64,000 nucleotides of DNA from an uncultured Rickettsiales bacterium (GTDB lineage: Bacteria; Myxococcota_A; UBA796; UBA9615). The first letter of the stretch is position 1. Every line of letters starts with the position of its first letter. The notes under the pieces were generated by a model. It worked only from the letters and a program-made list of their open reading frames with translations. It ran no database searches and was not told the origin of the DNA. This document shows, in pieces, positions 10,346 through 63,504 of the stretch. Made by a program: the position numbers and the translations under genes. The DNA lies in assembly GCA_964416435.1 (NCBI GenBank), contig CAYQEG010000010.1:3488-67487 (forward strand), in the 5' to 3' direction.

Positions 10346-10395
10346 CTGACGATCCTACCCATCCCCACCTCGGAGCGAGTTAGATTGCGCGTCCC

Positions 10396-33976: not shown

Positions 33977-34009
33977 GCCGAGCCGATCCGACCGGCGTAG
34001 GGTGTCGGC

Positions 34010-34771
34010 ATGCAGACCCAGAACATCGCCGTCTTCGCCGACTTCGAGAACGTCGCCATCGGCGCCAAGGACGCCAAGTTCGACACGTTCAAGATCGAGG
34101 TCGTGCTCCAGCGCCTCCTGGACAAGGGGAGCGTCATCATCAAGCGGGCCTACGCCGACTGGACCCGCTACAGCAGCTCCCGCAAGCCGCTGCACGAGCA
34201 CGGGTTCGAGCTGATCGAGGTCCCCCACGTCAGCTACGGCGGCAAGAACTCGGCCGACATCAAGCTGGTCGTCGACGCGATCGATCTGTGCCACACCAAG
34301 CCCCACGTGCAGGTCTTCGCGATCATCTCGGGCGACTCGGACTTCAGCCCGCTGGTCGCCAAGCTGCGTGAGAACGGCCGGTTCGTCATCGGGGTGGGCG
34401 TCCGGGAGAGCACCAGCGGCCTGCTGGTCGAGTCCTGCGACGAGTTCATCTTCTATGACGACCTCGTCGCCAAGAAGAGGCGCACGAGGAAGGCGCGGGC
34501 GAAGAAGCCGGCGGCCGATTCGAAGGGCAACGAGGCGCTCGACCTGGTGGTCGACGCGGCCGAGGCGCTGCTGCGGGACAAGGGCGAAGCGGTCTGGGGT
34601 TCGCACGTCAAGCAGGTGATCAAGCGCAAGCGGCCGGACTTCGACGAGACCGCGTTCGGCTATCGGGGCTGGGGGGACCTGCTCGAGGACGCCGCCCGCA
34701 AGGGTCGCCTGGAGGTGACGCGCGACTCGGCGTCCGGCGGCTACCGCGTCACCGCGGTGGCGGACGCGTAG
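34010..34771 (+). CDS. NYN (LabA-like) domain + OST-HTH/LOTUS domain protein
   Basis: IAVFADFENV...ISGDSDFSPLV NYN core; C-terminal LDLVVDAAEALL...WGSHVKQVIK OST-HTH-like. Confidence 0.65.
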   Translation: MQTQNIAVFADFENVAIGAKDAKFDTFKIEVVLQRLLDKGSVIIKRAYADWTRYSSSRKPLHEHGFELIEVPHVSYGGKNSADIKLVVDAIDLCHTKPHVQVFAIISGDSDFSPLVAKLRENGRFVIGVGVRESTSGLLVESCDEFIFYDDLVAKKRRTRKARAKKPAADSKGNEALDLVVDAAEALLRDKGEAVWGSHVKQVIKRKRPDFDETAFGYRGWGDLLEDAARKGRLEVTRDSASGGYRVTAVADA

Positions 34772-35193: not shown

Positions 35194-35623
35194 GTCACGC
35201 CTCAGCGCCCTGCCCGCCGTTCCGCCGCCTTTTGAGCGACCGAATGCGACACTGCGACTGGCGTTCGCCCTGGCGGGCTTTACCCGAAGGTCGGGATTCG
35301 GGGAGTTCCACCCGTCACCCCGGCTCCTGCGACGCGGCCCTTGGCTTCCACCTCTCGGACTCGCGCGCTACCGGTTGGGACTCCCCGACAATCCGGTTGG
35401 AGTCGATCGGCCTCCGACGTCCCCGTCGGGTGCTTCCGGTGACCTCCTTGCGGGCCGAAGCCCCGGTTTGGACCACCGTCCCCGCCCTCCCGGGCGGGCC
35501 GACCACCGGACCGCCGGATCGGACCGCCAGCTGACGATCCGCCCTGGGTCAGGTGTCCCTCGGCTTGCGTAGACGGTCCCGTTCCCGGGCGACAGGGCTG
35601 TGACATCCCTGCCTTCCGCCGGG

Positions 35624-36784
35624 TCACCCCGACGTCTCCTGACGACCCCACGCGGCCGGTCGTGCTCCGGGCGGCCCGGCCCGCCGGCGCGCGCCCCCGG
35701 CGGCGCCCCGCCCCGGCCGGGGGGGGGGGGGGGGGGGCGGGGCCGCCCGGGGGCGGGGGGCCCGGGGGGGGGGGCCCCCACGGCGACTGCGGTTCATGTC
35801 CGCCAGGGTGGTGCGCGTGTGGTGGTCGATGTTGGACTCGGAGAGCAGCTCGGCGACCGAGCCGGGCTCGAAGAAGCCCTCGTCGAACCCCTCCGCCCGG
35901 GCGCGCTCGGTGGCGGCCATGACCGCGGCAAACGCGCGCGCGACTTCGACCCGGTCGGCGTCGGCCGGGCAGACCCGGTCGAGCAGCTTCAGGCCGAACC
36001 CGAGCAGCGCGCCGCCGGTGCACGGCACGGGCGGCACGTAGAGCTTGCCGCCCCGGTAGTCGATCTCCAGGGGGTCGAGGACCGTCGGCCGGAACCCGGC
36101 GAGGTCCTCCATCGTGATCGAGCCGTTGGGCGGGCCGAATTCGTCGACCAGCGCCTGGGCGTATCGACCCGAGACGAACGGGCCCGAGCCGTCGAGCGCG
36201 AACGCCTCCAGCGCGTCGCCCATCGACGGGATCGTGACTCGCATCCCCTCCCCCAGCGGCCGACCGTCGGGGTTGAACAGCGCGTCGCTGCACGGACCGA
36301 CCGACGTGATCGCTTCGAGCATCGTCGAGACGACCTGGGTGCCGTGAGTGGCGTCCCATCCGCCCCGGGCGAGCCGGATCGCGGGGCGGGCGATCGTCTC
36401 CAGGGGCAGCCGCCCCCAACGGCTCCACAGCAGCTCGAGCCCCGGGGCCACCGTCGGCACGGCGGTCGAGCCGCGGCCGGCGTGGAACAGCTGCGTGGTC
36501 GGGCCGTAGTCCACCTCCAGGGCGCGGAAGTCGCGAGGCTTCAAGCCGACCCCGAGCCCGGGGAACACCGACATCGAGTTGACGATCTGGACGCGCCCGG
36601 TCGCCCCCTCTCGGACGGTGGCCACCATGCCGCCGCCCAGCCCCATCAGCAGGGGCTCGCACACGCCCGCGGCGAGGGCCGCAGCCACCGCCGCGTCCGC
36701 CGCCGTGCCGCCCGCGCGCAACACCTCAACCGCTGCATCCGTCGTCGACGCGTGGCCCGTGGCCACCGATCCCAGGTCCGCCAT
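35624..36784 (-). pseudogene. Gamma-glutamyltranspeptidase family gene, large-subunit region only; reading frame dissolves into poly-Pro in G19/G11 homopolymer tracts. Truncation, frameshift or assembly error
   Basis: N-terminus matches GGT (TAADAAVAAALAAGVCEPLLMGLGGGMVA); homology ends near 35782; the remainder translates the poly-G tract; no small-subunit coding sequence downstream. Confidence 0.5.
35719..35775. repeat. G19 and G11 homopolymer tracts
   Basis: Runs of 19 and 11 G directly visible at 35719-35737 and 35764-35774. Confidence 0.9.
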
Positions 36785-36899: not shown

Positions 36900-37829
36900 T
36901 CAGAACGCCGGCGCCTCCTCGACCCAGACCGTGCGGCCGAAGTTGCCGTCGTTCTCCTCGCACGAGGTCGCGCTGCCGCGCAGCCACAGCGACACGGTGT
37001 GGGGGCCCGTCGCGAGGCCCTCGAAGACCGTCTCGACCGCGATCGCGGTCGAGCCGTAGTTGACGGCCCGCCCTCCGCTGGAGTCGTCGGCGAAGTCGTC
37101 GACCCGCAGCTGGTAGTCACAGAACTGCCCCGCCGTGCCCACCATCGTCACGTGGCTGTTCCAGGTGAGCTGCACGTCCGTCTCGGCGGCCACCTTCACG
37201 AACTCCCCGACGTCCCGCACGTGGATGTACGAGAAGGTCGGCGAGAGGGTCGGGTTGCCGGTGTAGTTGAGGCGGGTCCGAACCGTGACGTTGGCGTCCA
37301 CCTCGGCCTGGAGCAGGCCCAGGTCGGCCGCGAGCGCCCCGAGCGCCGACGCCCCGGCCGCGATGTTCGCGGCGTTGGTGGAGATGTCGCCGGCGTTGGT
37401 GGAGATGTTCGTCGAGTTGGTGTCGATCTCGACGGTGTGGGTGTCGATCGCGGCGGCGTGGGCCGCCAGCCCGCCGATCAGGCTCACGATGGCCGCGTCG
37501 TTTTCGCTGATGGCGCCGTCCAGGGTGTCGATGTCCGACGCGTGGGCGAGCAGGGCGGCGTCCTGAACGGCCTCGGCCTCCTCCAGGGCGGCGATCCGCG
37601 CCTCGAACGCGGCCGGGTCCAGGTCGTCGATCTGGGCGCCCTGGGCGGTCAACTCGGTGCGCGCAGCGGCCAACTCGTCCGCCAGCTCGTCCAGGGCCGC
37701 CTGGACGTCCTCGCTGTCCAGGCCGCTCTCCTCGCCGTCGTAGGCGACGTCAGCCGCCCCGGTCCCCTGGCAGGCGACGAGGGGCAGGGCGAGGAGCCCG
37801 ATCAGCAGGTTGAGGGGGTGCTTGCTCAT
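36900..37829 (-). CDS. Lipoprotein with coiled-coil region and Thr/Asn-rich pseudo-repeats (start taken at internal Met MSKHPLN)
   Basis: Lipobox LPLVACQG; IDTNSTNISTNAGDISTNAANIAAG repeats with matching DNA-level repeats; beta-rich C-terminus. Confidence 0.5.
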   Translation of the reverse strand: MSKHPLNLLIGLLALPLVACQGTGAADVAYDGEESGLDSEDVQAALDELADELAAARTELTAQGAQIDDLDPAAFEARIAALEEAEAVQDAALLAHASDIDTLDGAISENDAAIVSLIGGLAAHAAAIDTHTVEIDTNSTNISTNAGDISTNAANIAAGASALGALAADLGLLQAEVDANVTVRTRLNYTGNPTLSPTFSYIHVRDVGEFVKVAAETDVQLTWNSHVTMVGTAGQFCDYQLRVDDFADDSSGGRAVNYGSTAIAVETVFEGLATGPHTVSLWLRGSATSCEENDGNFGRTVWVEEAPAF

Positions 37830-38010
37830 GACGACCTCCGATGCGGCGCGCTGGCGGAGGCGCACAGCGCCGGGCGATCGAGGTCGCAAGAGCTGTGCCT
37901 TGCAGCGATCGGGCTACTGCGACGCCGCGGTCCGGCGCCGAGGGAGGTCGGGCGTGGAGCGCTGCACACCGGGGCGGGAGGAGGCGCACAGCCCCCCGCC
38001 CCGGAGCGGG

Positions 38011-38772
38011 TCAGCTCCCGGAGAGGATCGCGAGCGCCTCGTCGACCACCTGAGGAGCCCCCGCGAGGGTCGGGACCCGGTCCCAGATGCTGACCGACCG
38101 ACCCTCGAAGTCGACCACCACGCCGCCGGCCCGCTCCACCAGCAGGTAGCCGGCGGCGACGTCCCAGGGGTGGTTGCGAGCGGCGTGGAAGCCGAACCGG
38201 CCCTCGGCGGCCCAGGCCAGGCCGAGGCTCGCGCAGCCCATCGCCCGCACCCCCGCGAACCGATCCGCGGCCAGGAGCAGCGGCACGACCGCGTGGGACA
38301 GGCCGACGGACGCGAGGGCATACGCGGGGGCTCGGGCGCTCACCGACAGCGGCGCCCCGTCGACCGTGGCGGGGCCGTCCGCGGTCGCGTGGAAGAGCCT
38401 CCCGGTGCCCGACTCCAGCAGCCACCCCTCGGCGAGCTCACCCGCCTCCACCCGGCCCAGCGAGATGCCCCACCAGGGCACGCCGGCGGCGAAGTTGTGG
38501 GTGCCGTCGATCGGGTCCAGGACGAACGCGTCTCCCCGCACTGGCGTGCTCGACGGCCGGGCCCCCTCCTCCGAGATCACCGCCACCCCCGGGAAGTGCT
38601 CGGCCAGCCCCCGGGTGACCAGGCGATCGACCCGCAGGTCGCACTCGGTGACCAGGTCCACGCCGCGGCCGGCGCCCTCCTCCCGCTTGTCGTGCAGCTC
38701 GAGCCGGGCCGCGCCGGACCGCTCGGCGACGGCTCGCGAGGCGCGCCGGAGGAGGTCGGGGACCGGGTTCAC
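38011..38772 (-). CDS. suhB: Inositol monophosphatase family protein (SuhB/ImpA-like); GTG start overlapping the hemD stop (GTGA)
   Basis: VLDPIDGTHNFAAGVPWWGISLG and WDVAAGYLLV IMPase motifs. Confidence 0.7.
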   Translation of the reverse strand: MNPVPDLLRRASRAVAERSGAARLELHDKREEGAGRGVDLVTECDLRVDRLVTRGLAEHFPGVAVISEEGARPSSTPVRGDAFVLDPIDGTHNFAAGVPWWGISLGRVEAGELAEGWLLESGTGRLFHATADGPATVDGAPLSVSARAPAYALASVGLSHAVVPLLLAADRFAGVRAMGCASLGLAWAAEGRFGFHAARNHPWDVAAGYLLVERAGGVVVDFEGRSVSIWDRVPTLAGAPQVVDEALAILSGS

Positions 38773-39539
38773 CGCCGGCCCCACCAGGTGGCGACGGCGT
38801 CCACGAGGGCCGCGATGGACGCCTCGGACGCCTCGACGGCGACGCTCAACCCGAGGTCGCGGCACGCCTCCGTCGTCACCGGCCCGATGGAGGCGACCGC
38901 GACGCCGCGCAGCGCATCGGCGATCGGCCGGTCCAGCGCCGCGGCGAGGTGCCGGACCGTCGCGCCGGACGCGAAGGTGATCGCGTGCATGCCCGCGCCG
39001 ACGGCGCGCCGCAGCGGCTGCGGATCCGACGGCGGGGTCGACCGGTAGGCCGTGACGACGTGCACCGAGCTGCCCCGGGACCGCAGCCCGTCGGGGAGCA
39101 CCTCACGCGCCTGCTCGGCTCTCGGGAGCAGCCAGCGGAACCCATCGAGCCGGGCGCCCATCGCCGCGTCCAGCGCGGTCAGCAGCCCCTCGGACAGGAA
39201 GCGCTCGGGCACGACGGAGACGTCGACGCCACGCGCGGCGAGGGCCCGGGCGGTGGGGTCCCCGGTCACGGCCACGACGCGGCCGGAGAACACGCCGGGG
39301 TCGACGCGGGCCAGGGTTCGCTCGACGGCGTTGACCGACGTGAACAGCACGCCGTCCCAGCCGTCAGGCAAGGCGGCGAGGGCCGCGTCCAGCGGCTCGA
39401 AGGACTCGGGATCGACGATCTCCAGGCAATGCAGCTCGACCGGCTCGGCGCCCGCGGCCGCGAGCAGGCGGGCGAGCTTGCTCGCCTGGGCCCGGGACCG
39501 GGTCACCCCCACGCGGGCCCCCGAGAGCGGGCCGGTCAC
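38769..39539 (-). CDS. hemD: Uroporphyrinogen-III synthase
   Basis: HemD-like 256 aa; position immediately after hemC; overlaps the hemC stop. Confidence 0.65.
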   Translation of the reverse strand: MTGPLSGARVGVTRSRAQASKLARLLAAAGAEPVELHCLEIVDPESFEPLDAALAALPDGWDGVLFTSVNAVERTLARVDPGVFSGRVVAVTGDPTARALAARGVDVSVVPERFLSEGLLTALDAAMGARLDGFRWLLPRAEQAREVLPDGLRSRGSSVHVVTAYRSTPPSDPQPLRRAVGAGMHAITFASGATVRHLAAALDRPIADALRGVAVASIGPVTTEACRDLGLSVAVEASEASIAALVDAVATWWGRR

Positions 39540-40492
39540 GCCTGGGAGAGCACGGCTCGGGCGCCTCGATCGACCAGGTCGCGGGCGAGCACCCGCCCCA
39601 GGCGGCGGGCCCCCTGCAGCGTCGCCTCCCCCTTTCGCTCGGCCCTCAGGGCCTGGGCGCCATCGGGGGACAGCACCATCGCCGACAGGCTCAGGGTCGT
39701 GTTGCCGGCCTCCGCCCGGACCGCCAGCGGGATCGAGCAGCCGCCTTCGAGCACGGACAGGACCGTGCGCTCGGCCTCCACCTCGATCCGGGTCGACTTG
39801 TGCTCCAGGGGGCGGACCAGCTCGAGGACGTCGTAGTCACCGGCGCGCCCCTCGATCCCGATCGCCCCCTGCCCCGGCGCAGGCAGCCACGGCGGGTCGA
39901 GCCGAACATCGATCCGGTCGCCCAGCCCGAGGCGGTCGAGCCCGGCGCAGGCGAGCAGGAGCGCGTCGTACTGGCCCTCGTCGAGCTTGCGGAGCCGGGT
40001 CGGCACGTTGCCGCGCACGTCCCTCGTCACCAGGTCCGGCCGCAGCCGGTGGAGCATCGCGCTCCGGCGCAGGCTGCTCGTGCCGACGACGGCCCCTTCG
40101 GGGAGCAGATCGACGCCCCCCCGCGACAGCGGCAGCCGCTGCACGGCCGCCTCGCGGAGCTCCGGCTCGAGCACCAGCGCGTCCCGGGGATCGGCCCGCT
40201 TGGGCACCGCGACGACGCCCAGCCCCTCGGGGAGCTCCGTCGGCAGGTCCTTGAGGGAGTGCACTGCGATGTCGACCGTGCGGTCGTGCAGCGCCTGCTC
40301 CAGTTCGGCCGTGAACAGCCCCTTGCCGCCGACCTCGGGGAGCGGTCGATCGACCACCCGGTCGCCCTTGGTGGAGTAGATCTCGATGTGCACGTCGAGG
40401 GTCGGGTGCAGGGTGCGGAGCATGTCCGCGACGGCGTTGCTCTGCCACAGCGCCAGCTTGCTCCCGCGGGAGCCGATCACGAGCCGGTCCAT
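39536..40492 (-). CDS. hemC: Porphobilinogen deaminase (hydroxymethylbilane synthase)
   Basis: MDRLVIGSRGSKLALWQSN...GGKGLFTAELEQALHD...GTSSLRRSAML...APGQGAIGIEGR; 318 aa; the track ORF is over-extended upstream. Confidence 0.85.
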   Translation of the reverse strand: MDRLVIGSRGSKLALWQSNAVADMLRTLHPTLDVHIEIYSTKGDRVVDRPLPEVGGKGLFTAELEQALHDRTVDIAVHSLKDLPTELPEGLGVVAVPKRADPRDALVLEPELREAAVQRLPLSRGGVDLLPEGAVVGTSSLRRSAMLHRLRPDLVTRDVRGNVPTRLRKLDEGQYDALLLACAGLDRLGLGDRIDVRLDPPWLPAPGQGAIGIEGRAGDYDVLELVRPLEHKSTRIEVEAERTVLSVLEGGCSIPLAVRAEAGNTTLSLSAMVLSPDGAQALRAERKGEATLQGARRLGRVLARDLVDRGARAVLSQA

Positions 40493-41850
40493 CAGGCTCC
40501 TTCGTCGTCGGCCGCCGCGGCAGCGGGGGCGACGGGTTCGTCGTCGGCGAGCTCTCGCACCGACAGCAGGGTCGCCTGGACGCCCAGGAGCGCCGCGGCG
40601 TGGTCGAGCAGATCGATCTCGCCGGTCTCGCCCAGCTCCTTGATCCGCGACATCGGGTGATGCAGGTACCGCTTGGCGATCGCGCCGGCCATGCGCTCCA
40701 GGGCGACCGCGATCTGCTCCTGGGCGTCGCCGGGCAGGCCGTCGAGCACCGGGCGCAGCCCCGCCAGCGTGCGCTCCGCCTCCTGGTGGCCCTCCCGGGC
40801 GACCCGCTGGCCCACCGCGCGGAGCAGCGGGGCGACGTGCACGCGGGCGAGCACCCGCCCGAACGCGTCGGTCTCTTCCTTGACGAGCCCCTCGGCGAGG
40901 GACGCTTCCCGCTGACGCGCCTCCCGGCCGGACTCGACCACCCGCCCCAGATCGTCGATGTCGAACAGGTAGACGGAGTCGAGATCGTTGATCGCCGGGT
41001 CGAGGTTCCGCGGCACCGAGATGTCGATCAGGAGCAGCGGCCGACCCTTGCGCGCGCGCCGCACGCTCTTGACGTCGGCCCGGTTCAGGATCGGCTCCCG
41101 AGCGCCGGTCGAGGCGACGACGATGTCCGCCTTCTTGAGGAACTCGACGCGGCGGCTCCAGGGGAGCACCGACGCGTTGAGGGGGCCCGCCACGTCGGCG
41201 GCCCGCGACATCGTGCGGTTGGCGACGTACAGGTCCCGGCAGCCCCGATCGGAGAAGCCCCTCAGCGCCAACTCCGCCATCTCCCCCGCGCCCAGCAGCA
41301 GGACCGGGTGGCGGTGGAGGTCCTCGAACACGGCCCCCGCCATGTCGACAGCGGCCCGCGCGACCGACAGCGTGGAGGCCCCGATGTCGGTCTCGGTCCG
41401 GACCCGCTTGGCGACGGCGAAGCCCTTGTGGAGCAGTCGATGGAGCACCGGCCCCACCGTGCCGACCTCCGCCGCCACGCGGTACGCCTCCTTGACCTGG
41501 CCGAGGATCTGGGACTCGCCGAGCACCATCGAGTCGAGCGAAGAGCAGACGCGGAAGAGGTGCTGCACCGCCTCGGCGTCGTCGTAGGCGTACAGGTGCT
41601 CGTCGAGGCGGGCGGACGGCAGCCCCGACCAGTCGGAGATCGCCGCCTCGACGATGCCCGGCTCGGCTCGGACCTGGACCGTGAGGACCTCGACGCGGTT
41701 GCACGTCGACACGAGCACGACCTCCCGGATGCCGGGCTGGGCGTGCAGCTCCTGCATCACGGCGGTCATCCGATCGTCCGGCAGCGACAGGCGTTCTCGG
41801 ACTTCGACCGGCGCGACCTTGTAGCTGGTCCCGACGAGCTTGAGCCTCAT
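40492..41850 (-). CDS. hemA: Glutamyl-tRNA reductase
   Basis: MRLKLVGTSYKVAPVEVRE start; GAGEMAELAL NADPH-binding region; ATGA overlap with upstream hemX-like gene. Confidence 0.85.
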   Translation of the reverse strand: MRLKLVGTSYKVAPVEVRERLSLPDDRMTAVMQELHAQPGIREVVLVSTCNRVEVLTVQVRAEPGIVEAAISDWSGLPSARLDEHLYAYDDAEAVQHLFRVCSSLDSMVLGESQILGQVKEAYRVAAEVGTVGPVLHRLLHKGFAVAKRVRTETDIGASTLSVARAAVDMAGAVFEDLHRHPVLLLGAGEMAELALRGFSDRGCRDLYVANRTMSRAADVAGPLNASVLPWSRRVEFLKKADIVVASTGAREPILNRADVKSVRRARKGRPLLLIDISVPRNLDPAINDLDSVYLFDIDDLGRVVESGREARQREASLAEGLVKEETDAFGRVLARVHVAPLLRAVGQRVAREGHQEAERTLAGLRPVLDGLPGDAQEQIAVALERMAGAIAKRYLHHPMSRIKELGETGEIDLLDHAAALLGVQATLLSVRELADDEPVAPAAAAADDEGA

Positions 41851-42689
41851 GCGTGCGCGACTCCAACGACGGAGGCGATGACCCCCGCGAAGCCCACGAT
41901 GGCGATCCAGGCGGCCTTCCGCCCGCCCCATCCCAGGAGCGAGCGCGCCTGCCACGCCAGGGCATACAGCAGCCACAACCCGAGGGTCACCACGACCTTC
42001 GGCCGGAGGTTCACGCCCTCCGCTGCACCATGAATAGCCCACAGGGTGCCCGTGAGAATGCCCATCGTCAGGAACGCGAGCCCCAGCGCGAAGCTCTTGC
42101 GGTTGAGCGAGTCGAGCACCTCGAGGGACGGCATCCGCAGCCCCGCGTCGGTGGACGGCAGGGGGAGCTTCTTCTTCTTCAGCCGGTTGCTCTGGATGAG
42201 GTAGAGCACCCCGCAGCCGAAGGCGAGGGCGAAGAAGCTGAGGCTGGAGTAGTTGGAGAGCGAGTGGAACGGCAGCCAGGTCGACGCCAACTGCTCGGGC
42301 AGGAACGCGGCCGGGTCCTCACCGATCAGCATGCCGCCCAGCGCCAACCCCATCGACACCGGCGCGAGGAACGCGCCGAGCACGCGGACCTTCTCCCGGG
42401 TCAGCCCGGCGACGACCGCAGCGGACGCGGCGAGCCAGGCGATGGTCGCCAACGGGTGGTCCCAGGCGCCGCCGCTCTCCCCGCTGAACGCCCCCAGGGG
42501 CATCCGCCCGAAGTGCGCGACGTGAAGGATCGCGACGACGGTGTGAGCCACCGCGGCGACCAGCAGGACGTAGAAGCCCGCGCGGACCGCGCTCGCCCGA
42601 CCCATGGTCAGGCCGAGGGCGTAGACGACGGTGCTCGCGCCGTAGCCGACCAGCGCGACGAGGAAGAGGACCGCCGCGACGGTGGTCAT
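41847..42689 (-). CDS. CcsA/HemX-like cytochrome c assembly-family membrane protein upstream of hemA
   Basis: 8-TM protein with Trp-rich WAxxxWG-like region; position equivalent to hemX in hemAXCD operons. Confidence 0.55.
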   Translation of the reverse strand: MTTVAAVLFLVALVGYGASTVVYALGLTMGRASAVRAGFYVLLVAAVAHTVVAILHVAHFGRMPLGAFSGESGGAWDHPLATIAWLAASAAVVAGLTREKVRVLGAFLAPVSMGLALGGMLIGEDPAAFLPEQLASTWLPFHSLSNYSSLSFFALAFGCGVLYLIQSNRLKKKKLPLPSTDAGLRMPSLEVLDSLNRKSFALGLAFLTMGILTGTLWAIHGAAEGVNLRPKVVVTLGLWLLYALAWQARSLLGWGGRKAAWIAIVGFAGVIASVVGVAHA

Positions 42690-44704
42690 CTACGTCCCCG
42701 AAGGCGTGAGAAGAGGCCGCCCTTCTTGGGCTCTTCGGCGGCTTCGGCGTCCTCGCCGTCGAGGGGGGGGACGGCGTCGGGCACGCCCTGGCCGCGTCGG
42801 TCCATGAGCCTCAGCTCGCGTGTCGCCTCGACGTGCTCGGGATCGGCCTTGAGCGTGCGCACGAAGTACTTCCGGGCCCCGACGAACTCCTCCTGCAGGA
42901 ACGCGAGGCGGCCGAGGTAGTACCACGCATCGGCGTAGCCTTCGTCCTTGCGGACGATCTTCGACATCTCCGCCATCGCCTGGCGGGGGTTCTCGGGGTC
43001 CAGCCGGAAGCGAGCCCACGCCAACTGCGTCTGCGCGTCGAGGTTGTCCGGGTCGTGGAGCGTCGCGTCCTTGAAGTCCTGCGCCGCGTCGGCGTAGCGC
43101 TTGTGGCGCAGCCGGATGCGTCCCCGGGCCATCGCGACCTTGCCCATCTCCATGTCCGTGGAGTCGAGGTCACCCTCGAGCTGGCCCAGGTACTCCGCGC
43201 GGCGAGGCGGGTCGCGCAGGACGTCGTAGGCGTCCTGGATCCTGGCGAACACCGCGTTGGCGGTCTCCTGCACGCGCGGATGCAGGCCGTACAGCTTGTC
43301 GGGGTGGTACTTGAGCGAACGGGTCCGGAGCGCTTCGCGGATCTTCTTGTCGTCCGCGTCTCGCTTCAGCCCGAGCACCTGGTAGTGGTCCGCGGTCCCG
43401 AGGCGGTGAAGCTCGGTCACGAGCTCGGTGAGCCGCTTGCCGGTGTCGGCGCCCCACGGCCTCCCCGAGAAGTGCAGGAAGCCGATCCGGCGGAGCAGCT
43501 CGACCAGGGCGTGCACGTGGTGGGTTCGAGCGTCGTCGTCCCCCGCGCAGACCCGGACGAGCTGGGCGAGGGTGATCTCGCGGCCCCGGGCCTTCATCAG
43601 CTGGGCCAGCACCTCCTGCTCGACGCCGGACAGCGCCCACGAGCGGATGGTGGCGTCGCTCGGCAACCGGACGACGACCACCGCGTCGGGATCGACGTCC
43701 AGCAGCTCGCGCCCCTCGGCCTCCGAGGCGACCGCCCGGATGAGGAGCGGGATGACGGGCGTGGGGTCGCCGAAGTGGTCCTCGGGGGCGAGGCCGGGGA
43801 TCGCGCGGAGCTCGCCGTCCCAGGCGTCGAGGGCCCTCGAGATCAGGGCGACGGCGGCCTGCTGCTCCAGCCAGCCGGTCTCGTGCATGCCGATCCCGCG
43901 CAGCGCCATCAGCAGCTGGGCCTCCTCCTGGATGTTCTGGAGCGGGACCTCGGGCACGTGCACGCCGTCCAGGCGCCCGTGGGCCGCGGCCGCCGCGACG
44001 AGGTCCCTCCCGGCGGCGGAGCGAGCGAAGGTCAGCTGGCCCAGCTCGAAGTACAGGGCGAGGTCGTCCGCGTCCTCCTGGGCGATCTCGAGGCACCCGG
44101 TCCAGTCGCTCCGGTCGATCCCGCACAGCTGCCTGGCCATCTCGACCTTGGCGAGCGGGCGGGTCCCCGTCGGCGCGTCGACCCGGAGCTCGGCGGCGCT
44201 CTCGGCGGCGAGATCCGCCACCACCTGGACCGCTGCGGCGCGGTCGTCGGGCGGCGCGAGCAAGGTGACCAGCCGAACGAGCTCGCCGGGATCCAGGGGG
44301 GCGACCATCACCGCGCCGAGGTTGAGCTCGACCGGCGCGAGCTCCTTGAGCGCCTCCGGCTTGTGGTAGCTGGACCACGCGATGACCGGCACCGGCGCGG
44401 CGAAGTGGCGGTACTCGTCCCGGATCAGGTCGAGCCCGCTGCCCGACTGCATGTCCGCCGAGATCATCACCAGGTCGGGGTTCCGGGCCCGGATCTCCAG
44501 CTTGAGGCGCTCGGCGTCCACGAGCCGCACGATCTCGTAGCCGAGCATGCCGAGGACCGACTCGACCACGCGGGCGGTTCGATCGTTCGACTCGATGAGC
44601 AGGAGGGTCGGCACGGAGGCCGGGAGGATAGCAGCCAGCCCTGCGCTTGCTCCCCCCAACGTCGGTGTGGTTCGAGGGCTTGACCCGGCCCGGACCGGCA
44701 CCAT
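42686..44704 (-). CDS. Fusion protein: N-terminal response-regulator receiver + central domain + J-domain (DnaJ-like) + TPR repeats
   Basis: Receiver PTLLLIESNDRTARVVESVL...LVMISADMQ; J-domain HYQVLGLKRDADDKKIREALRTRSLKYHPDK; TPR-like C-terminus; start taken at ATG 44704; ATGA overlap with hemX-like start. Confidence 0.6.
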   Translation of the reverse strand: MVPVRAGSSPRTTPTLGGASAGLAAILPASVPTLLLIESNDRTARVVESVLGMLGYEIVRLVDAERLKLEIRARNPDLVMISADMQSGSGLDLIRDEYRHFAAPVPVIAWSSYHKPEALKELAPVELNLGAVMVAPLDPGELVRLVTLLAPPDDRAAAVQVVADLAAESAAELRVDAPTGTRPLAKVEMARQLCGIDRSDWTGCLEIAQEDADDLALYFELGQLTFARSAAGRDLVAAAAAHGRLDGVHVPEVPLQNIQEEAQLLMALRGIGMHETGWLEQQAAVALISRALDAWDGELRAIPGLAPEDHFGDPTPVIPLLIRAVASEAEGRELLDVDPDAVVVVRLPSDATIRSWALSGVEQEVLAQLMKARGREITLAQLVRVCAGDDDARTHHVHALVELLRRIGFLHFSGRPWGADTGKRLTELVTELHRLGTADHYQVLGLKRDADDKKIREALRTRSLKYHPDKLYGLHPRVQETANAVFARIQDAYDVLRDPPRRAEYLGQLEGDLDSTDMEMGKVAMARGRIRLRHKRYADAAQDFKDATLHDPDNLDAQTQLAWARFRLDPENPRQAMAEMSKIVRKDEGYADAWYYLGRLAFLQEEFVGARKYFVRTLKADPEHVEATRELRLMDRRGQGVPDAVPPLDGEDAEAAEEPKKGGLFSRLRGRR

Positions 44705-44707
44705 AAT
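44680..44707 (+). promoter_or_regulatory. Sigma-70-like promoter for trxA: -35 TTGACC, 16-nt spacer, -10 CATAAT
   Basis: Seen directly; AGGAGA RBS 6 nt before the trxA ATG; the -10 overlaps the divergent gene's ATTATG start. Confidence 0.35.
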
Positions 44708-44761
44708 GCGGACCCCACCCCCCAGGGAGCGGCCGGACGCCGCCCCCACCCAGGAGATCAG

Positions 44762-45088
44762 ATGGCCGGCAACGTCCAGGAGTTCAGCGACACCAACTTC
44801 GACGCCGAGGTGCTCGGCAGCGACCAGCCCGTGCTGGTCGACTTCACCGCCGTCTGGTGCGGCCCCTGCAAGAAGCTCTTCCCGCTCGTCGAGGCGGTCG
44901 CGGACGAGTACGCCGGGCGTGTCAAGGTCGGCAAGCTCGACATCGACCACAACCCCAACACGGCCATCAAGTACCACGTCCGGTCCGTGCCGACGCTCGT
45001 GGTGTTCAAGGACGGCAAGCCCGTCAACAAGGTCGTCGGGCTCACGAACAAGCGGAAGATCGCCGCGATGTTCGACAGCGCCCTGTAG
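44762..45088 (+). CDS. trxA: Thioredoxin
   Basis: WCGPCK active site; 108 aa. Confidence 0.9.
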   Translation: MAGNVQEFSDTNFDAEVLGSDQPVLVDFTAVWCGPCKKLFPLVEAVADEYAGRVKVGKLDIDHNPNTAIKYHVRSVPTLVVFKDGKPVNKVVGLTNKRKIAAMFDSAL

Positions 45089-46421
45089 CGCCGACGAGCG
45101 CCAACGCCAGGAGCCAGATCGCCATCCCTGCGGGGGGCTCGCCGTGCTCGCACGTGCAGCCTTCGGCGGGTGGCTCCGTCGCCGGCTCGACCCGCGCCAG
45201 CCCGCACTGGATCTCCGCCGGCGCCGGCCCCACCGACGCCCCCACGATGCCGATCCGGCCTTGGGGGTCGACCGCGCCCGTCAGCCGAAGCTCGACCACG
45301 CCGCCGCCGCTGCCTGACGCCACCTCCCCGCCGGACCCGACGACGTCGATCGCGACGAGGCGGATCTCCGCCACCGCGCCCTCCGGCTCGACCGAGCAGG
45401 CCAGCGCGAGCGGGCGCTCCTCTCCGTCGTTGGGCAGCTCCGCGAACAGGGCCGTGAACGGGGCGTCGACGTGCAGGAACGCCACCTCACCGGCGTCCAC
45501 GGACAGCTCCTCGACGTTCACCTGGGCCGCCTCCAGCACGCACCCGTGGGTCGCCGCGTCGTAGTGGGCGCCGTCGTCCCGGGCGCACGCGAACAGGTTC
45601 CAGAGCGCGTAGGTGCCGAACGCGGCTTCGAACGACTCGCCCAGGTCCGCCCGCGTCGCCGAGTCGAGCGCCGCGGCCCAGTCCGGGTCGTCGGCGAGCG
45701 CGTCCCAGACCGCCCGGACGGTCCCCTCCCCGTCCCCGCGGTCGAACAGGTGCTTGAACAGCAGGAACCCGGCGTACTCGTACCGATCCCCCTCCAGGTG
45801 GATCGCGGCGTCCATGCCGCGCAACCGCTGGTTCCACAGCACGCCGAGGGCGAACTCCAGCGCGCCGCCGGTGTACAGGCGGTACTGCTCGAAGGTGGCG
45901 GTCGCCTCGTAGATCCAGGACTCCGCGGCGTTGGTGTAGGCGTACTGCACGCAGTGATGCAGCTCGTGGGCCGCGACCGAGCGCGCCGTCTCGTCCCCCA
46001 GGGAGGTGTTCCCGGGATCGAGCTCGACGTAGCAGGAGGTCCCGTCGGCCACCGGCACGTGCCAGGCGAACCCGAAGGCGGTGATCTCGCGGAGGTAGAC
46101 GTCGATCTCCGGGGTGCCGCCGCCCCCCTCGTCCGGGAGCACCGTGCGCCAGCCCATCGCCTCGTAGTCGGCGGCGGCGTCGGTCAGCGCTTCGAGCACC
46201 AGGTCGACCCCGTCGGGGATGCCGTCCCCGTCGTCGTCCCCCATGTCGGCGGGGCGGTCGACGCCCTCCTCCGTCCAGTGCACGACGAACTGGCCGTCGT
46301 CGCTGAGCACCGTCTGCTCCGGTCCCGACAGCGAGGGACGCCCCCCCCCGCGAGCCTCGTCCGCGGGGCGGGTGCACGGGGCCAGGGCCAGAGCCGTGGC
46401 CGTCAACAAGGGCAGCAGCAT
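45042..46421 (-). CDS. Secreted HExxH zinc metallopeptidase-like lipoprotein with MYXO-CTERM sorting signal
   Basis: Lipobox LALAPC; AHELHHCVQY; C-terminus GCTCEHGEPPAGMAIWLLALALVGATGRCRTSRR (Cys motif + TM + Arg cluster). Confidence 0.6.
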   Translation of the reverse strand: MLLPLLTATALALAPCTRPADEARGGGRPSLSGPEQTVLSDDGQFVVHWTEEGVDRPADMGDDDGDGIPDGVDLVLEALTDAAADYEAMGWRTVLPDEGGGGTPEIDVYLREITAFGFAWHVPVADGTSCYVELDPGNTSLGDETARSVAAHELHHCVQYAYTNAAESWIYEATATFEQYRLYTGGALEFALGVLWNQRLRGMDAAIHLEGDRYEYAGFLLFKHLFDRGDGEGTVRAVWDALADDPDWAAALDSATRADLGESFEAAFGTYALWNLFACARDDGAHYDAATHGCVLEAAQVNVEELSVDAGEVAFLHVDAPFTALFAELPNDGEERPLALACSVEPEGAVAEIRLVAIDVVGSGGEVASGSGGGVVELRLTGAVDPQGRIGIVGASVGPAPAEIQCGLARVEPATEPPAEGCTCEHGEPPAGMAIWLLALALVGATGRCRTSRRSSACS

Positions 46422-48537: not shown

Positions 48538-48692
48538 TCGCCGCCTCGCCGATCCGGACGTGATCCGGGCGGGGGGAACTCGCGTTGACAGGGCCTCTTG
48601 GGGCCGATAGGGTCCCGTGCCATTTCGGCGGAACCGGCGTACGTCGCCTCGATCCGCCGGTTCGATGCACGTTCAGCTGAGAAGATTCGCCC

Positions 48693-50192
48693 ATGCAGGT
48701 CCAGGTAGGCTCGGTCTCCCCCTCCAATCACTCCACGGACCTGGCGGTCGTCGCCTTCTACGGCCGGGGTGGTCGCCGCTCGCCGGCCTGGACCGCGCTC
48801 AACCGGGCGATCGGGGGCGGGCTCGCCACCACGCTGGAGGCGCTCGGCTTCCGGGGCAAGGGCGGAGAAGCGGTGACGATGGCCGCGCCGGCCGGCGTGC
48901 GCGCCAAGGTGCTGCTCGTCGCCAGCCTGGGGGAGCGCAGCAAGCCTCACCCGGGCGCGCTGCGGGACGTCGCGATCCGGGCCGGCATGGCCGCTCGCAA
49001 GGGATCGCTGAGCCGCGCCGCCTTCTGGACCGACGCGTCGATGGACGCGCGCACGCCGTTCGACCGGGCGAGCGCCCAGGCGATCGGCGAGGGGCTGGAG
49101 TACGGGGCCTACCGGTTCGACCGGCACCAGGCCAAGAAGATCGGCGAAGGCGCGCCGACGGACGTCTACGTCTACTTCGACGGCCGCAAGGAGCGCCCCC
49201 GCATCGCCGCCGACGTGGCGCGCGGAGCCACCATCGGCCGCAACCAGAACATCGCCCGCGACCTGGGCAACGAGCCGGCCAACGTGCTCAACCCCGAGAG
49301 CCTGGTCGACTTCGCCCGGACGATGGCGGCGGACAAGGGGATCGAGATCACCGTGCTCGACCGCGACGAGTGCGAGGCACGCGGCATGGGCGCGTTCCTG
49401 TCGGTCGCCCAGGCGAGCAAGTACGCCCCCGCCTTCGTGCACATGGTCCACCGCCCGAGCAAGCCGCGGAAGCGCGTGGTGCTCGTCGGCAAGGCGCTGA
49501 CCTACGACAGCGGCGGCATGTGCCTCAAGCCGGCCGCGGGCCAGGAGCTGATGAAGATGGACATGTGCGGCTCGGCCGCGGTCATCGGCGCCATCGGTGC
49601 CGCCGCCGACCTGGACGTCGACGTGGAGGTCCACGCGATCTTCGCGTCCTGCGAGAACGTCATGGGCGGGTCGGCGTACCACACCGGCGACATCCTCACG
49701 GCGAGCAACGGCAAGACCATCGAGGTCCTCAACACCGACGCCGAGGGCCGCCTGACGCTGGCCGACGCCCTGGTCTACGCCTGCGCCGAGACGAAGCCGG
49801 ATCTGCTGATCGACCTCGCGACGCTGACCGGCGCCTGCATGGTCGCGCTCGGCCCGTCGATCGCCGGCGTCATGGGCACCGGGCGCGGCCTCATCCGCGA
49901 CCTCAAGAGCGCCGCGGAGAGCTCCGGCGAGCCGCTGTGGGAGCTGCCGATGCCCGAGCAGTACGCCGAGCTGCTGCAGAGCAAGGTCGCCGACACGACG
50001 AACCTGGGCGGCCGCTACGGCGGCGCCATCACGGCCGGCATGTTCCTCAAGGAGTTCGTCGACGACGGCGTCGCCTGGGCCCACATCGACATCGCCGGCC
50101 CGGCGATCAACGACAAGCCGCTGGGCGGCATGCCAGCCGGGGCGACCGGGTTCGGGGTGCGGGTGCTGAGCGAGCTGATCGCCTTCGGGTAG
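48693..50192 (+). CDS. pepA: Leucyl aminopeptidase (M17)
   Basis: NTDAEGRLTLADAL M17 signature; 499 aa. Confidence 0.85.
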   Translation: MQVQVGSVSPSNHSTDLAVVAFYGRGGRRSPAWTALNRAIGGGLATTLEALGFRGKGGEAVTMAAPAGVRAKVLLVASLGERSKPHPGALRDVAIRAGMAARKGSLSRAAFWTDASMDARTPFDRASAQAIGEGLEYGAYRFDRHQAKKIGEGAPTDVYVYFDGRKERPRIAADVARGATIGRNQNIARDLGNEPANVLNPESLVDFARTMAADKGIEITVLDRDECEARGMGAFLSVAQASKYAPAFVHMVHRPSKPRKRVVLVGKALTYDSGGMCLKPAAGQELMKMDMCGSAAVIGAIGAAADLDVDVEVHAIFASCENVMGGSAYHTGDILTASNGKTIEVLNTDAEGRLTLADALVYACAETKPDLLIDLATLTGACMVALGPSIAGVMGTGRGLIRDLKSAAESSGEPLWELPMPEQYAELLQSKVADTTNLGGRYGGAITAGMFLKEFVDDGVAWAHIDIAGPAINDKPLGGMPAGATGFGVRVLSELIAFG

Positions 50193-50261
50193 CCCGGGGC
50201 GCCTCGCGCTCAAGCTCGGCCCCGGAGCCCCGATAACGATCCCAGCAGGTGTCGCGTCGTC

Positions 50262-52016
50262 GTGACGCAAGACCAGGAGGAGCGGCTCGTTGCCGCCCCG
50301 ATCGCCTGCTCCCGCCACGGACGACCACCGACGCCGTCGGAGTCGTGCATGCATCGAGACCGCCGACACCCAGCCCCCGCCTCCCCCCGGGTAGCTCAGC
50401 GCCCGCACCTGCCGCGGGTGCTCGTCATCGCGCCCGACGGCCACGAACGGGCGGAGCTCGTCGCCCGCCTGTCGGAGCTGGCGTTCGAGCCGTGGCCGAC
50501 CGACTCGGGCGCCGCGGCGATCCCGCTCCTGAACCAAGGCCGCTACTTCGCCGCGCTCTGCGACCTCCACATGCCGGACCTCGGCTGCTTCGGCGTCCTG
50601 CGGGAGCTCGCGCGGCTGCGGCTGGAGACGCCGGTGGTCGCGCTGACCGATGAGCCCACCGTCGGCGAGGTGATCGCGCTGTTGCGCAAGGGGGTCGGCG
50701 ACGTGCTCGTCCGGCCCGTGAGCGTCGACGCCCTCTCGGCCTGCCTCGACCGGCTCCGAGACGCGACCGAGCCGCAGGTCCAGGTGCCGCGAGACGCGCC
50801 GTCCTGCCCCTGGAACCTGGGCGCGGTGCTGAGCGATCCCCCGCCTGCGTTCACGATCTCCGGGTCCTCGCTGTCCGGGCCGATGCCCGCTCCCATCGCG
50901 CCGACCCGCGCCCGAGCAACGCCGCCGGCTGGCGCGGCGGCGCCGGCGCGTCCACCGGCGGTGAAGGAGATCCCCAGGCCTCGACCGGCGGACAAGGCGC
51001 GCGCGGCCGCCCCTCCCGAGCCTGCACGACCCAGGCGCAAGGCCCGTCGGACCAGGGCCCACCCCCCCGAGCCGAAGCAGCAGCGCGAAGAGCCCGCAGC
51101 GGCGCGACGGACGCCTCGCTCGGTCACCCCCGGCCCGGCCGCCCCCGCCGAGGCCCGCAAGCTGGCCAAGGAGGCCGTCCGCGAGCTCAAGCAAGGCCTG
51201 GAAGACGGCAGCTTCAGCCTGCCGGCCATCGGCCCCCTCGCGCCCGAGATCCAGCGGCTGCTGAACCAGCCGACCTGCGGGGCCGGCGACGTCTTCAACG
51301 TCGTGCACCGCGATCCGGCCATCGCCTCGACCGTGCTGCGGACTACCAACAGCGGCATGTACGGCGGCCAGGCGACGATCACCGACCTCAAGGCCGGCTG
51401 CCTCCGCCTCGGCAACCGACGCGTGCTCGCGATCGCCCAGGAGGTCCTGATCAGGTCGATCTTCGAGTTCCAGGCCGGCCCCCTCCAGGCCGTGATCGAG
51501 GACATGTGGCGCAACGTGATCGTATGCGCCCGCGGCGCCCACAAGCTGTCCGCGAAAGTAGGGGTCGGTGATCCCAACCAGGTCGAGGTCGCAGCGATGT
51601 TCCACAACCTCGGGGAGATCGTCTTGCTCCGGCTCGGTCGGGAGCTCGGGCTCCAGCTCGTCGGCGGAGAGCTGCCCACCGAGTACCTGGCGGTCATCGA
51701 GGCGAGCCACGAGCGGCTGGGGGCCGAGCTGCTCAAGTCCTGGGCGATGCCCAACGACCTGATCCAACTCGCCGGCTCGCACCACTCCGCCCCCCGGCGC
51801 CCCGAGTCCCGCGACGCCACCAGCCTGCGCATGCTCGTCCGGGCGGCGTGGGTCGGCGCCTGCCGCGCCGGCTACACCTACCTCCCCGACCAGGACGACG
51901 AGGACGGGGGAGCTGCGCTGAAGCACCTGGGCCTGGGGCTGGACGAGCTGGACGAGATCTTCGAGGCCGCCGAGACCTGGTTGAAGCCCGCCGGGGACGC
52001 CGACAGGAGTTCCTAG
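50262..52016 (+). CDS. HDOD-domain signalling protein with N-terminal receiver-like domain and Pro/Ala-rich linker (true start may be the internal ATG near 50349)
   Basis: Receiver-like VLVIAPDG...LCDLHMPD; HDOD region GSFSLPAIGPLAPEIQRLL...MFHNLGEIVLL. Confidence 0.6.
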   Translation: MTQDQEERLVAAPIACSRHGRPPTPSESCMHRDRRHPAPASPRVAQRPHLPRVLVIAPDGHERAELVARLSELAFEPWPTDSGAAAIPLLNQGRYFAALCDLHMPDLGCFGVLRELARLRLETPVVALTDEPTVGEVIALLRKGVGDVLVRPVSVDALSACLDRLRDATEPQVQVPRDAPSCPWNLGAVLSDPPPAFTISGSSLSGPMPAPIAPTRARATPPAGAAAPARPPAVKEIPRPRPADKARAAAPPEPARPRRKARRTRAHPPEPKQQREEPAAARRTPRSVTPGPAAPAEARKLAKEAVRELKQGLEDGSFSLPAIGPLAPEIQRLLNQPTCGAGDVFNVVHRDPAIASTVLRTTNSGMYGGQATITDLKAGCLRLGNRRVLAIAQEVLIRSIFEFQAGPLQAVIEDMWRNVIVCARGAHKLSAKVGVGDPNQVEVAAMFHNLGEIVLLRLGRELGLQLVGGELPTEYLAVIEASHERLGAELLKSWAMPNDLIQLAGSHHSAPRRPESRDATSLRMLVRAAWVGACRAGYTYLPDQDDEDGGAALKHLGLGLDELDEIFEAAETWLKPAGDADRSS

Positions 52017-52797: not shown

Positions 52798-53390
52798 CAG
52801 GGCGTCCCCGCGGTCGCCTCGAGGATCCGGGACCACAGCTCGCCGCGCCCCGTCCGGTCGACGCTGCTGAACAGGAGGCTGGCCTCCCGCTCGACGCCCA
52901 GCCCCTTGCAGATCAGGCTGTGGCGGTGGAGCCGCTTGGACTTGGCGATGCGGTCGACCTTCGTGAGCACCAGCAGCCCCAGCCGCTCGGTTTCCTCGAG
53001 CCAGTCGAGCATGCGGTCGTCCAGGTCCGTCGGGTCCCGGCGCATGTCGACCAGCACGACCACCAGCCTCAGCGACTCCCGGCTCGCCAGGTACTCGCCG
53101 ATCATCTTGTCCCAGGTCCGCTTCACCTTGAGGGGCACCTTGGCGAAGCCGTAGCCCGGCAGGTCGGCGAACCGTAGATCGCGGCCGCTGTGTCGGACGT
53201 CGAAGAAGTTGATCGCCTGGGTGCGCCCCGGGGTCTTGCTCACCCGCGCCGCCCCGTGCCGCCCCACCAGCGTGTTCAGGCAGGAGCTCTTGCCGACGTT
53301 GCTGCGCCCCACGAACGCCACCTCCGGGCGATCGTCGTCGGGCCATTGCTTGCGCGCGAAGGCCGACAGCAGGAAGCGGACGTCGGTCAT
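52797..53390 (-). CDS. engB: Ribosome biogenesis GTP-binding protein EngB/YihA
   Basis: VAFVGRSNVGKSSCLN G1 motif, DLPGYG, LTKVD; ATGA overlap with upstream cytochrome gene. Confidence 0.8.
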   Translation of the reverse strand: MTDVRFLLSAFARKQWPDDDRPEVAFVGRSNVGKSSCLNTLVGRHGAARVSKTPGRTQAINFFDVRHSGRDLRFADLPGYGFAKVPLKVKRTWDKMIGEYLASRESLRLVVVLVDMRRDPTDLDDRMLDWLEETERLGLLVLTKVDRIAKSKRLHRHSLICKGLGVEREASLLFSSVDRTGRGELWSRILEATAGTP

Positions 53391-59016: not shown

Positions 59017-59079
59017 CACACACGCGCCCGGACGCCTAGTCTCTCCCGGCCGCAGCCCCGGCATTCGACCCTCTTCCTG

Positions 59080-63504
<4,425 letters not shown>

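Follow-up and report, generated by a model that had tools for sequence, protein, structure and literature searches.

Organization of the gene cluster

The window analysed here, a stretch of 64,000 nucleotides (nt) from an uncultured bacterium (contig CAYQEG010000010.1), carries a series of six minus-strand genes that is the subject of this report (Table 1). In 5' to 3' order these specify a J-domain/TPR protein, here designated RRJ, a HemX-like membrane protein, glutamyl-tRNA reductase (GluTR; hemA), hydroxymethylbilane synthase (hemC), uroporphyrinogen-III synthase (hemD) and a phosphatase of the inositol-monophosphatase family, the assignments being based on Pfam and NCBIfam models. Adjacent genes overlap by 1 or 4 nt. 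The region has a G+C content of approximately 73% and contains many spurious long open reading frames (ORFs); in the six minus-strand ORFs the G+C content at third codon positions (GC3) is 0.94-0.96, which is a coding signature.

Read off the minus strand, the RRJ/hemX (AGATGACC) and hemX/hemA (GCATGAGG) junctions each contain an ATGA overlap, at 42686-42689 and 41847-41850, respectively. The hemA/hemC junction (CCTGATGG) has TGATG with a 1-nt overlap at 40492, and the hemD/phosphatase junction (GGTGAAC) a GTGA overlap at 38769-38772. All four had been listed in a preliminary description of this DNA and are borne out by direct reading. A fifth overlap, absent from that list, joins hemC to hemD (GCGTGACC, GTGA, 39536-39539), the spacings at the five successive junctions being -4, -4, -1, -4 and -4 nt. 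A consensus scan of 37700-45200 revealed no terminator-like site, and the single promoter-like site in this interval lies on the opposite strand, with no same-strand promoter-like site within the cluster. Because the five junctions overlap and neither kind of internal site was seen, the six genes look like a single transcription unit, as the preliminary description had proposed; an internal promoter and terminator at the RRJ/hemX junction would speak against this, and the scan shows neither inside the cluster.

The HemX-like, hemA, hemC and hemD calls of the preliminary description agree with the Pfam and NCBIfam assignments. The HemX-like protein displays seven to eight hydrophobic segments by the Kyte-Doolittle method, a predicted topology only; it scores 87 bits against the CcsB synthase model TIGR03144 (cut-off 187.6), and no WWD motif was seen in it by eye. 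The HemC of the window retains R11, D84, R131, R132, R149, R155 and C242 (E. coli numbering). The last gene had been called suhB: this stands at the level of the family (PF00459) and fails for the SuhB equivalog, since model NF008027 gives only 62.6 bits where 332 are required. The HisN, CysQ and FBPase/IMPase models also remained below their cut-offs.

Downstream of the phosphatase gene, a G+C hairpin may mark the end of the operon. Its fold (-44 kcal/mol; z = -1.3 against shuffled sequences) is not significant, and as a terminator it was rejected, since it could not be told apart from shuffles at such G+C and no consensus terminator is present. The next same-strand gene begins 181 nt downstream; this is a 309-amino-acid (aa) ORF (36900-37829, minus strand) with no Pfam match, which is also present in loci L006-L008. 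An RNA leader or riboswitch was likewise dropped as a candidate, Rfam giving no match at E<=1 across 37500-45300.

Table 1. Coordinates of the features of the RRJ-hem cluster, in the window unless another locus is named
Feature	Coordinates	Strand	Evidence or remark
RRJ gene, first cistron, 642 aa	42686..44614	-	Pfam DnaJ 3.6e-16, TPR_2 6.4e-10
Degenerate receiver, aa 1-120 of RRJ	44255..44614	-	
PATAN-like (DUF4388/PatA_N) alpha/beta domain with helical insertion, aa ~150-316	43667..44167	-	
Winged-helix-like domain, aa ~320-384	43463..43657	-	
J domain, aa 409-475	43190..43390	-	HPD, aa 437-439, at 43298-43306
Three-repeat TPR and capping helix, aa ~485-607	42794..43162	-	
HemX-like (CcsA-family, non-synthase) integral membrane protein	41847..42689	-	PF01578 (Cytochrom_C_asm) 73 bits
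hemA, glutamyl-tRNA reductase	40492..41850	-	TIGR01035 386 bits (cut-off 210); three GlutR Pfam domains match
hemC, hydroxymethylbilane synthase	39536..40492	-	TIGR00212 323 bits
hemD, uroporphyrinogen-III synthase (HEM4)	38769..39539	-	PF02602 162 bits
Inositol-monophosphatase-family phosphatase	38011..38772	-	PF00459 (Inositol_P) 124.5 bits
G+C hairpin, 13 bp	37969..38004	-	7 nt past last stop codon, no T tract
Divergent control region, 147 bp	44615..44761	.	trx promoter and putative operon promoter
trx promoter, TTGACC-16-CATAAT	44680-44707	+	Consensus scan
Thioredoxin gene (trx; WCGPC), divergent from RRJ	44762..45088	+	Pfam Thioredoxin in gene calls, tblastn
HemC-like gene directly 3' of RRJ homologue	L012:10041-11009		
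HemC-like gene directly 3' of RRJ homologue	L016:10026-10871		
HemC-like gene directly 3' of RRJ homologue	L020:9880-10803		

Start of RRJ and the divergent control region

The preliminary description had the first gene begin with the ATG at 44704. The start is placed here at GTG 44614 because of four lines of evidence. The identical public protein P0001 (642 aa) is called from this GTG, and the N-termini of all 22 close homologues (22/22) start at the equivalent MPRILV... sequence. The 30 extra codons of the longer version have a GC3 of 0.70, against 0.90-1.00 in each 30-codon block of the ORF. The ATG itself (44704-44702) is the complement of CAT in CATAAT, the -10 hexamer of the promoter of the divergent trx gene.

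That promoter is a near-consensus sigma-70-type element which has been kept across homologous loci despite a G+C content of >70%; its ATTATG...GTCAAG signature was found in the homologous spacers of L001-L004 and L012, with GTCAAG in all. The consensus scan gave only this plus-strand site, and the operon's own promoter would sit within the same 147-bp spacer. A TATCCT-like element which recurs 5' of the start codon in some loci was considered for this role and set aside, there being no convincing -35 sequence.

Domain structure of RRJ

A confident AlphaFold2 model of RRJ, built on 22 homologues (pLDDT 87, pTM 0.74), resolves the protein into five parts in the order pseudo-receiver, PATAN-like domain, winged helix, J domain and three TPRs. 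The TPR region gives way to a disordered tail, whose last residues are the conserved GLFSRLRGRR.

The J domain passes the Pfam model (PF00226) with 59.5 bits against a cut-off of 27.8, and H437, P438 and D439 are invariant in 18/18 aligned family members, including the most distant. RRJ is not a canonical DnaJ of class A or B: TIGR02349 covers only model positions 1-63 of 354, with 53 bits against a cut-off of 377. The HscB models matched the J domain alone, below their cut-offs. RRJ is a lineage-specific class-C J-domain protein, and, judging from its residues, the J domain would stimulate the ATPase of DnaK.

The second domain is called PATAN-like after the DUF4388/PatA_N model (PF14332), which matches 8/10 family members (best E-value 6.7e-6), the RRJ of the window being without a match at E<=1; precomputed PatA_N matches exist on homologues P0041 and P0044. 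A conserved GMHE sequence sits at a generic helix position of DUF4388 proteins. By-eye reading of the alignments disclosed no CP motif or other recognizable heme-binding site in RRJ. A FLU-like or EEVD-clamp type of TPR was considered and dropped: the TPR region did not retrieve FLU at E<=1, its PDB sequence matches are to generic or designed TPRs only, and by eye the positions of the HOP clamp residues K8 and N12 are occupied by Met and Arg.

The receiver domain

The N-terminal 120 residues of RRJ have a receiver fold. In ungapped phmmer alignments to RstA, BfmR and KdpE, Ser52 aligns with the phospho-acceptor Asp and Ala105 occupies the position of the conserved Lys (CheY K109); the position of the acidic pair (D12/D13) is E8-S9, Ser9 replacing one residue of the acidic pocket. 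Throughout the 22-member subfamily to which the window protein belongs the acceptor position is invariably Ser, with Asp54 two residues further on, and the Lys position is Ala, Ser or Val. The Pfam Response_reg model gives 23.2-24.1 bits, under its cut-off of 30.2. The LD..LPG acceptor Asp, together with a Lys or Arg, is confined to the deepest-branching relatives (P0041, P0043 and P0044).

The preliminary description had taken this domain for a phospho-receiver and proposed signal-dependent or chaperone-dependent control of GluTR. With Ser52, Ala105 and Ser9 in place of key residues, control by phosphorylation is neither supported nor expected for the protein of the window. Phosphorylation may regulate those deep-branching members whose receivers are canonical. 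No kinase gene is present in the operon. The large PAS proteins encoded beside canonical-receiver relatives were considered as kinase partners and discarded, as they contain no HisKA or HATPase domains.

The window also encodes a 1495-aa PAS and coiled-coil protein (59017-63504, plus strand), approximately 14 kb from the RRJ locus. Its homologues include the large PAS proteins encoded divergently from RRJ in loci L015 and L019; identity is 37% over the N-terminal 230-265 aa, and there is a second collinear stretch. No kinase domain could be recognized in the window PAS protein or in those of L015 and L019.

Occurrence of the RRJ family

Word-indexed searches of 5.8 billion proteins were made with the full protein, an N-terminal profile and a distant-member profile as queries, and a profile of the N-terminal 400 residues was run exhaustively with HMMER against 1.84 billion representatives. 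The family comprises approximately 20 representatives at 50% identity, which are 630-660 aa in length and share a common architecture. Widening the word-indexed searches gained only P0024 and P0174, and the matches beyond these approximately 20 representatives are generic receiver or DUF4388 proteins. The family has so far been seen in uncultured genomes only (metagenomes or metagenome-assembled genomes). An unrelated 810-aa protein, P0094, contains a pair of DUF4388 domains, an HPD-bearing J domain and TPRs and lacks a receiver; judged by its amino-acid composition, its source organism is apparently low in G+C. The combination of PATAN, J and TPR domains thus exists outside the RRJ family.

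Genomic context of RRJ

The gene neighbourhood of RRJ was surveyed in 17 distinct loci, the window included. In 12 of the 17 (window, L001, L002, L003, L004, L009, L011, L014, L015, L018, L019 and L023) RRJ is directly followed by hemX, with a spacing of -4 to +10 nt. The conservation in relatives which the preliminary description had proposed as a check is therefore found. Next come hemA, hemC and hemD wherever the contig reaches far enough; the run extends to hemD in ten loci, while the contig of L002 ends within hemA and that of L018 within hemX. The adjacency of hemX and hemA was seen in every locus read through that junction. The remaining five loci have RRJ followed by a HemC-like gene only (L012, L016 and L020; 3/17), by the phosphatase gene only, with a 4-nt overlap (L010; 1/17), or by no hem gene (L017; 1/17). 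In L017, where trx is retained, the gene that comes next (10025-11020) specifies a protein of 331 aa that has no Pfam match and displays a hydrophobic N-terminus and long runs of Asp.

Loci L015 and L019 are the most informative. Their RRJ proteins, which have a canonical receiver, are 24-27% identical to that of the window; a large PAS protein gene stands upstream in place of trx and hemB ends the cluster in place of the phosphatase gene. The order RRJ-hemX-hemA-hemC-hemD is intact in both. Since the linkage has survived there with both flanks changed, it is not merely frozen synteny. In a rough neighbour-joining tree the L015 and L019 members are the deepest, from which it follows that the link between RRJ and the tetrapyrrole genes is probably ancestral and that the eroded loci are secondary and independent. 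The link is probably also functional: with linkage conserved even where the upstream neighbourhood differs, a functional tie of RRJ to tetrapyrrole synthesis is a reasonable inference from gene order.

HemC-like genes beside RRJ

When aligned to E. coli HemC, the HemC of every full-operon locus aligned keeps R11, D84, R131, R132, R149, R155 and Cys242. The HemC-like copies of the three loci that have RRJ and a HemC-like gene only are different. That of L012 has lost C242 and R149; in those of L016 and L020 nearly all of the seven residues are gone, as is the N-terminal motif. Identity between the L016 and L020 copies is still 37%, against 45% between their RRJ partners. Either these copies are relics in slow decay, stop codons being rare in G+C-rich DNA, or they have been kept as non-catalytic partners.

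Proposed role of RRJ

Our preferred reading, to which we assign a probability of approximately 45%, is that RRJ is a specialised J-domain co-chaperone, expressed together with the early enzymes of tetrapyrrole synthesis and acting upon them; this suggests a part for the Hsp70 chaperone system in the control of the heme pathway. Transcription of the six-gene operon would start from a promoter within the 147-bp spacer between trx and RRJ, with translational coupling throughout. RRJ would act as a targeting co-chaperone that brings DnaK, via the HPD motif, to one or more of the early tetrapyrrole proteins encoded downstream, the client or partner being bound through the TPR and/or the PATAN-winged-helix parts. 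The candidate clients are GluTR and the membrane regulator HemX, and/or HemC. DnaK might then assist the folding or assembly of the client or hand it over to proteolysis, either of which would set the flux into heme. Three eroded loci favour such a role: hemX, hemA and hemD are gone there, yet a HemC-derived ORF still follows RRJ.

Several observations weigh against it. The TPR region is generic, shows no similarity to FLU and, by eye, has no HOP-type carboxylate clamp; the C-terminal tails of HemA are not conserved across the loci; and the PATAN proteins known to date serve motility and polarity, not metabolism. The divergent trx gene adjoins RRJ in 14 of the 17 loci and is at least as constant a neighbour as the hem genes, and in most loci synteny extends to PepA and the cytochrome c7-EngB-RlmE group. 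With much of the wider neighbourhood conserved as well, phylogenetic inertia accounts for part of the conservation. RRJ with an intact HPD has, moreover, been kept in L010, where only the phosphatase gene follows, in L017, where no hem gene does, and in L012, L016 and L020, where a catalytically dead HemC-like gene is the only companion. This persistence of RRJ weakens the case for GluTR as the specific target.

In the main rival reading the operon is one of convenience, and it is quite possible that RRJ is a general or otherwise specialised co-chaperone, serving for instance redox or protein homeostasis with thioredoxin, or cell polarity as other PATAN proteins do, which shares a promoter with the hem genes and has no specific client in their pathway. 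The constancy of trx and of its promoter, the HPD-intact proteins in loci whose hem genes are absent or dead, the synteny of unrelated flanking genes and the known place of PATAN domains in pilus-motor regulators all fit this explanation. It accounts less well for L015 and L019, where RRJ-hemX-hemA-hemC-hemD is kept while trx is gone and both flanks have changed, for the tight spacing across the family (-4 to +10 nt), and for the fact that in the three eroded loci it is a HemC relic, and no other gene, that is left beside RRJ. Two regulatory roles were also considered. That RRJ is a phosphorylation-controlled response regulator coupling a two-component signal to chaperone control of GluTR, as the preliminary description had it, is very unlikely for the window protein: its subfamily invariably has Ser as the acceptor, has Ala, Ser or Val where the Lys would be and has lost a residue of the acidic pocket, the Response_reg score falls short of the Pfam threshold, and neither a kinase gene in the operon nor a recognizable kinase domain in the PAS proteins is available. 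For an ancestral form of RRJ the phosphorylation-dependent version is plausible, given that the acceptor Asp and a Lys or Arg are retained in P0041, P0043 and P0044, that two of these three are encoded beside a gene for a large PAS protein, and that a homologue of this protein lies 14 kb away in the window. It is most improbable that RRJ is a DNA-binding regulator following an OmpR-like logic, with its receiver and winged helix autoregulating the divergent trx and hem promoters and the J domain and TPRs as accessories. The winged-helix matches are weak and are equally good to the peptide-binding winged helices of RRE domains; the family-invariant residues are the HPD and TPR positions and not the putative recognition helix; and, besides the trx promoter hexamers, no repeated operator-like motif was noticed in the spacers.

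The co-chaperone role can be extended into a bolder form, in which RRJ serves the first committed tetrapyrrole steps as a dedicated Hsp70-targeting factor and is the missing cytoplasmic partner through which HemX-type proteins set the stability of GluTR; the ancestral protein would have been phospho-switched downstream of a PAS sensor, and a dead HemC would have been kept as a binding partner in some lineages after the pathway genes were lost from the locus. In this full form the proposal is rather unlikely.

Other features of the window

A gene at 50193-52016 (plus strand) specifies a protein with response-regulator receiver, HDOD and HD domains and adjoins PepA (48681-50192). It lies within a block, including a cytochrome c7-like gene (53387-54616), an EngB-type GTPase gene and RlmE, which is syntenic in most of the related loci.

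From 54614 down to approximately 35720-35759 the window is 99.9-100% identical to L006, L007 and L008. The departure from these loci, at 35620-35760, falls inside a gamma-glutamyltranspeptidase (GGT) gene, and the GGT ORF of the window (35624-36784, minus strand) matches Pfam positions 2-301 of 512 only. Past the breakpoint L006 has a full GGT gene, hemB (ALAD) and polA, and L007 a Ni-superoxide dismutase gene. The breakpoint represents either an assembly chimera or a strain-level rearrangement. Just beyond it, the window encodes an NYN-domain protein with a weak OST-HTH/LOTUS match (34001-34771, plus strand).

Comparison with known systems

Literature searches that paired J-domain proteins, DnaJ or DnaK with GluTR, DUF4388 or receiver domains turned up no bacterial J-protein linked to a hem operon, in keeping with the view of the preliminary description that this additional layer was undescribed. 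HscB offers a precedent for the arrangement. It is a class C J-domain co-chaperone encoded in the isc Fe-S operon together with its client pathway, and it resembles RRJ in combining an HPD-containing J domain with a client-binding module and in being encoded in the operon of the pathway that it serves. It differs in being small, in having no TPR, receiver or PATAN domain and in working with a dedicated Hsp70, HscA. The eukaryotic proteins DNAJC3 (p58IPK) and DNAJC7 likewise carry TPRs and a J domain in one polypeptide, and the TPR region of RRJ gives a weak sequence match to DNAJC3 (3ieg, 2y4t; E-value 0.06-0.09). In these proteins, which have neither a receiver nor a PATAN domain, the TPRs precede the J domain, whereas in RRJ they follow it, and the likeness is no more than generic TPR similarity.

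The N-terminal half of RRJ recalls other regulators. PatA, PixG and PixE, the PATAN response regulators, also join a PATAN/DUF4388-type domain to a receiver and make protein-protein contacts; they lack J domains and TPRs, and their roles are in pilus-based motility and heterocyst patterning. The name of the family model is PatA_N; the PATAN-like domain of RRJ, by contrast, comes after the receiver. The receiver of FrzS from Myxococcus xanthus is among the best structural and sequence matches of the RRJ receiver. FrzS has a pseudo-receiver without the canonical phosphorylation residues; as a whole protein it differs from RRJ, and the likeness is confined to the fold.

In plants GluTR is controlled by the TPR protein FLU, the chaperone cpSRP43 and Clp (PMC9992760). 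The likeness to the present system is one of concept only, in that the GluTR checkpoint stands under a TPR protein, a chaperone and proteolysis (PMC9992760); these regulators belong to other organisms, have other domain sets and bear no sequence relationship to RRJ.

As described in PMC5801465, HemX lowers the abundance of GluTR post-transcriptionally, by an undefined mechanism, in both B. subtilis and S. aureus, and the authors of the S. aureus study suggest a multiprotein mechanism and possible proteolysis. The HemX of Choby et al. 2018 has eight predicted transmembrane segments and belongs to the Cytochrom_C_asm family (PMC5801465). According to the same text hemX adjoins gtrR in 106/113 hemX-carrying genomes across phyla, for which reason the hemX-hemA-hemC-hemD part of the cluster must be regarded as an ordinary, known arrangement (PMC5801465). 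The hemAXCDBL-type clusters described there resemble that of the window in that a gene of the CcsA family overlaps hemA and is followed by hemC and hemD (PMC5801465). They differ in that the hemX of the window precedes hemA and is coupled to an upstream gene for a 642-aa J-domain/TPR protein. The available text of PMC5801465 makes no mention of a J-domain partner for HemX-GtrR.

What is new here is a pathway-embedded J-protein on top of this known HemX-GluTR cluster. Its practical weight is limited, the family coming from uncultured genomes only and being known here from sequence alone. A J-domain protein directly upstream of hemX-hemA across a lineage nevertheless makes the DnaK system a concrete candidate in the control of bacterial heme synthesis. 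If the proposed role is correct, a new architecture (pseudo-receiver, PATAN, winged helix, J and TPR) joins the specialised bacterial J-proteins, and the part played by the DnaK system would parallel the chaperone and TPR control of GluTR in plastids.

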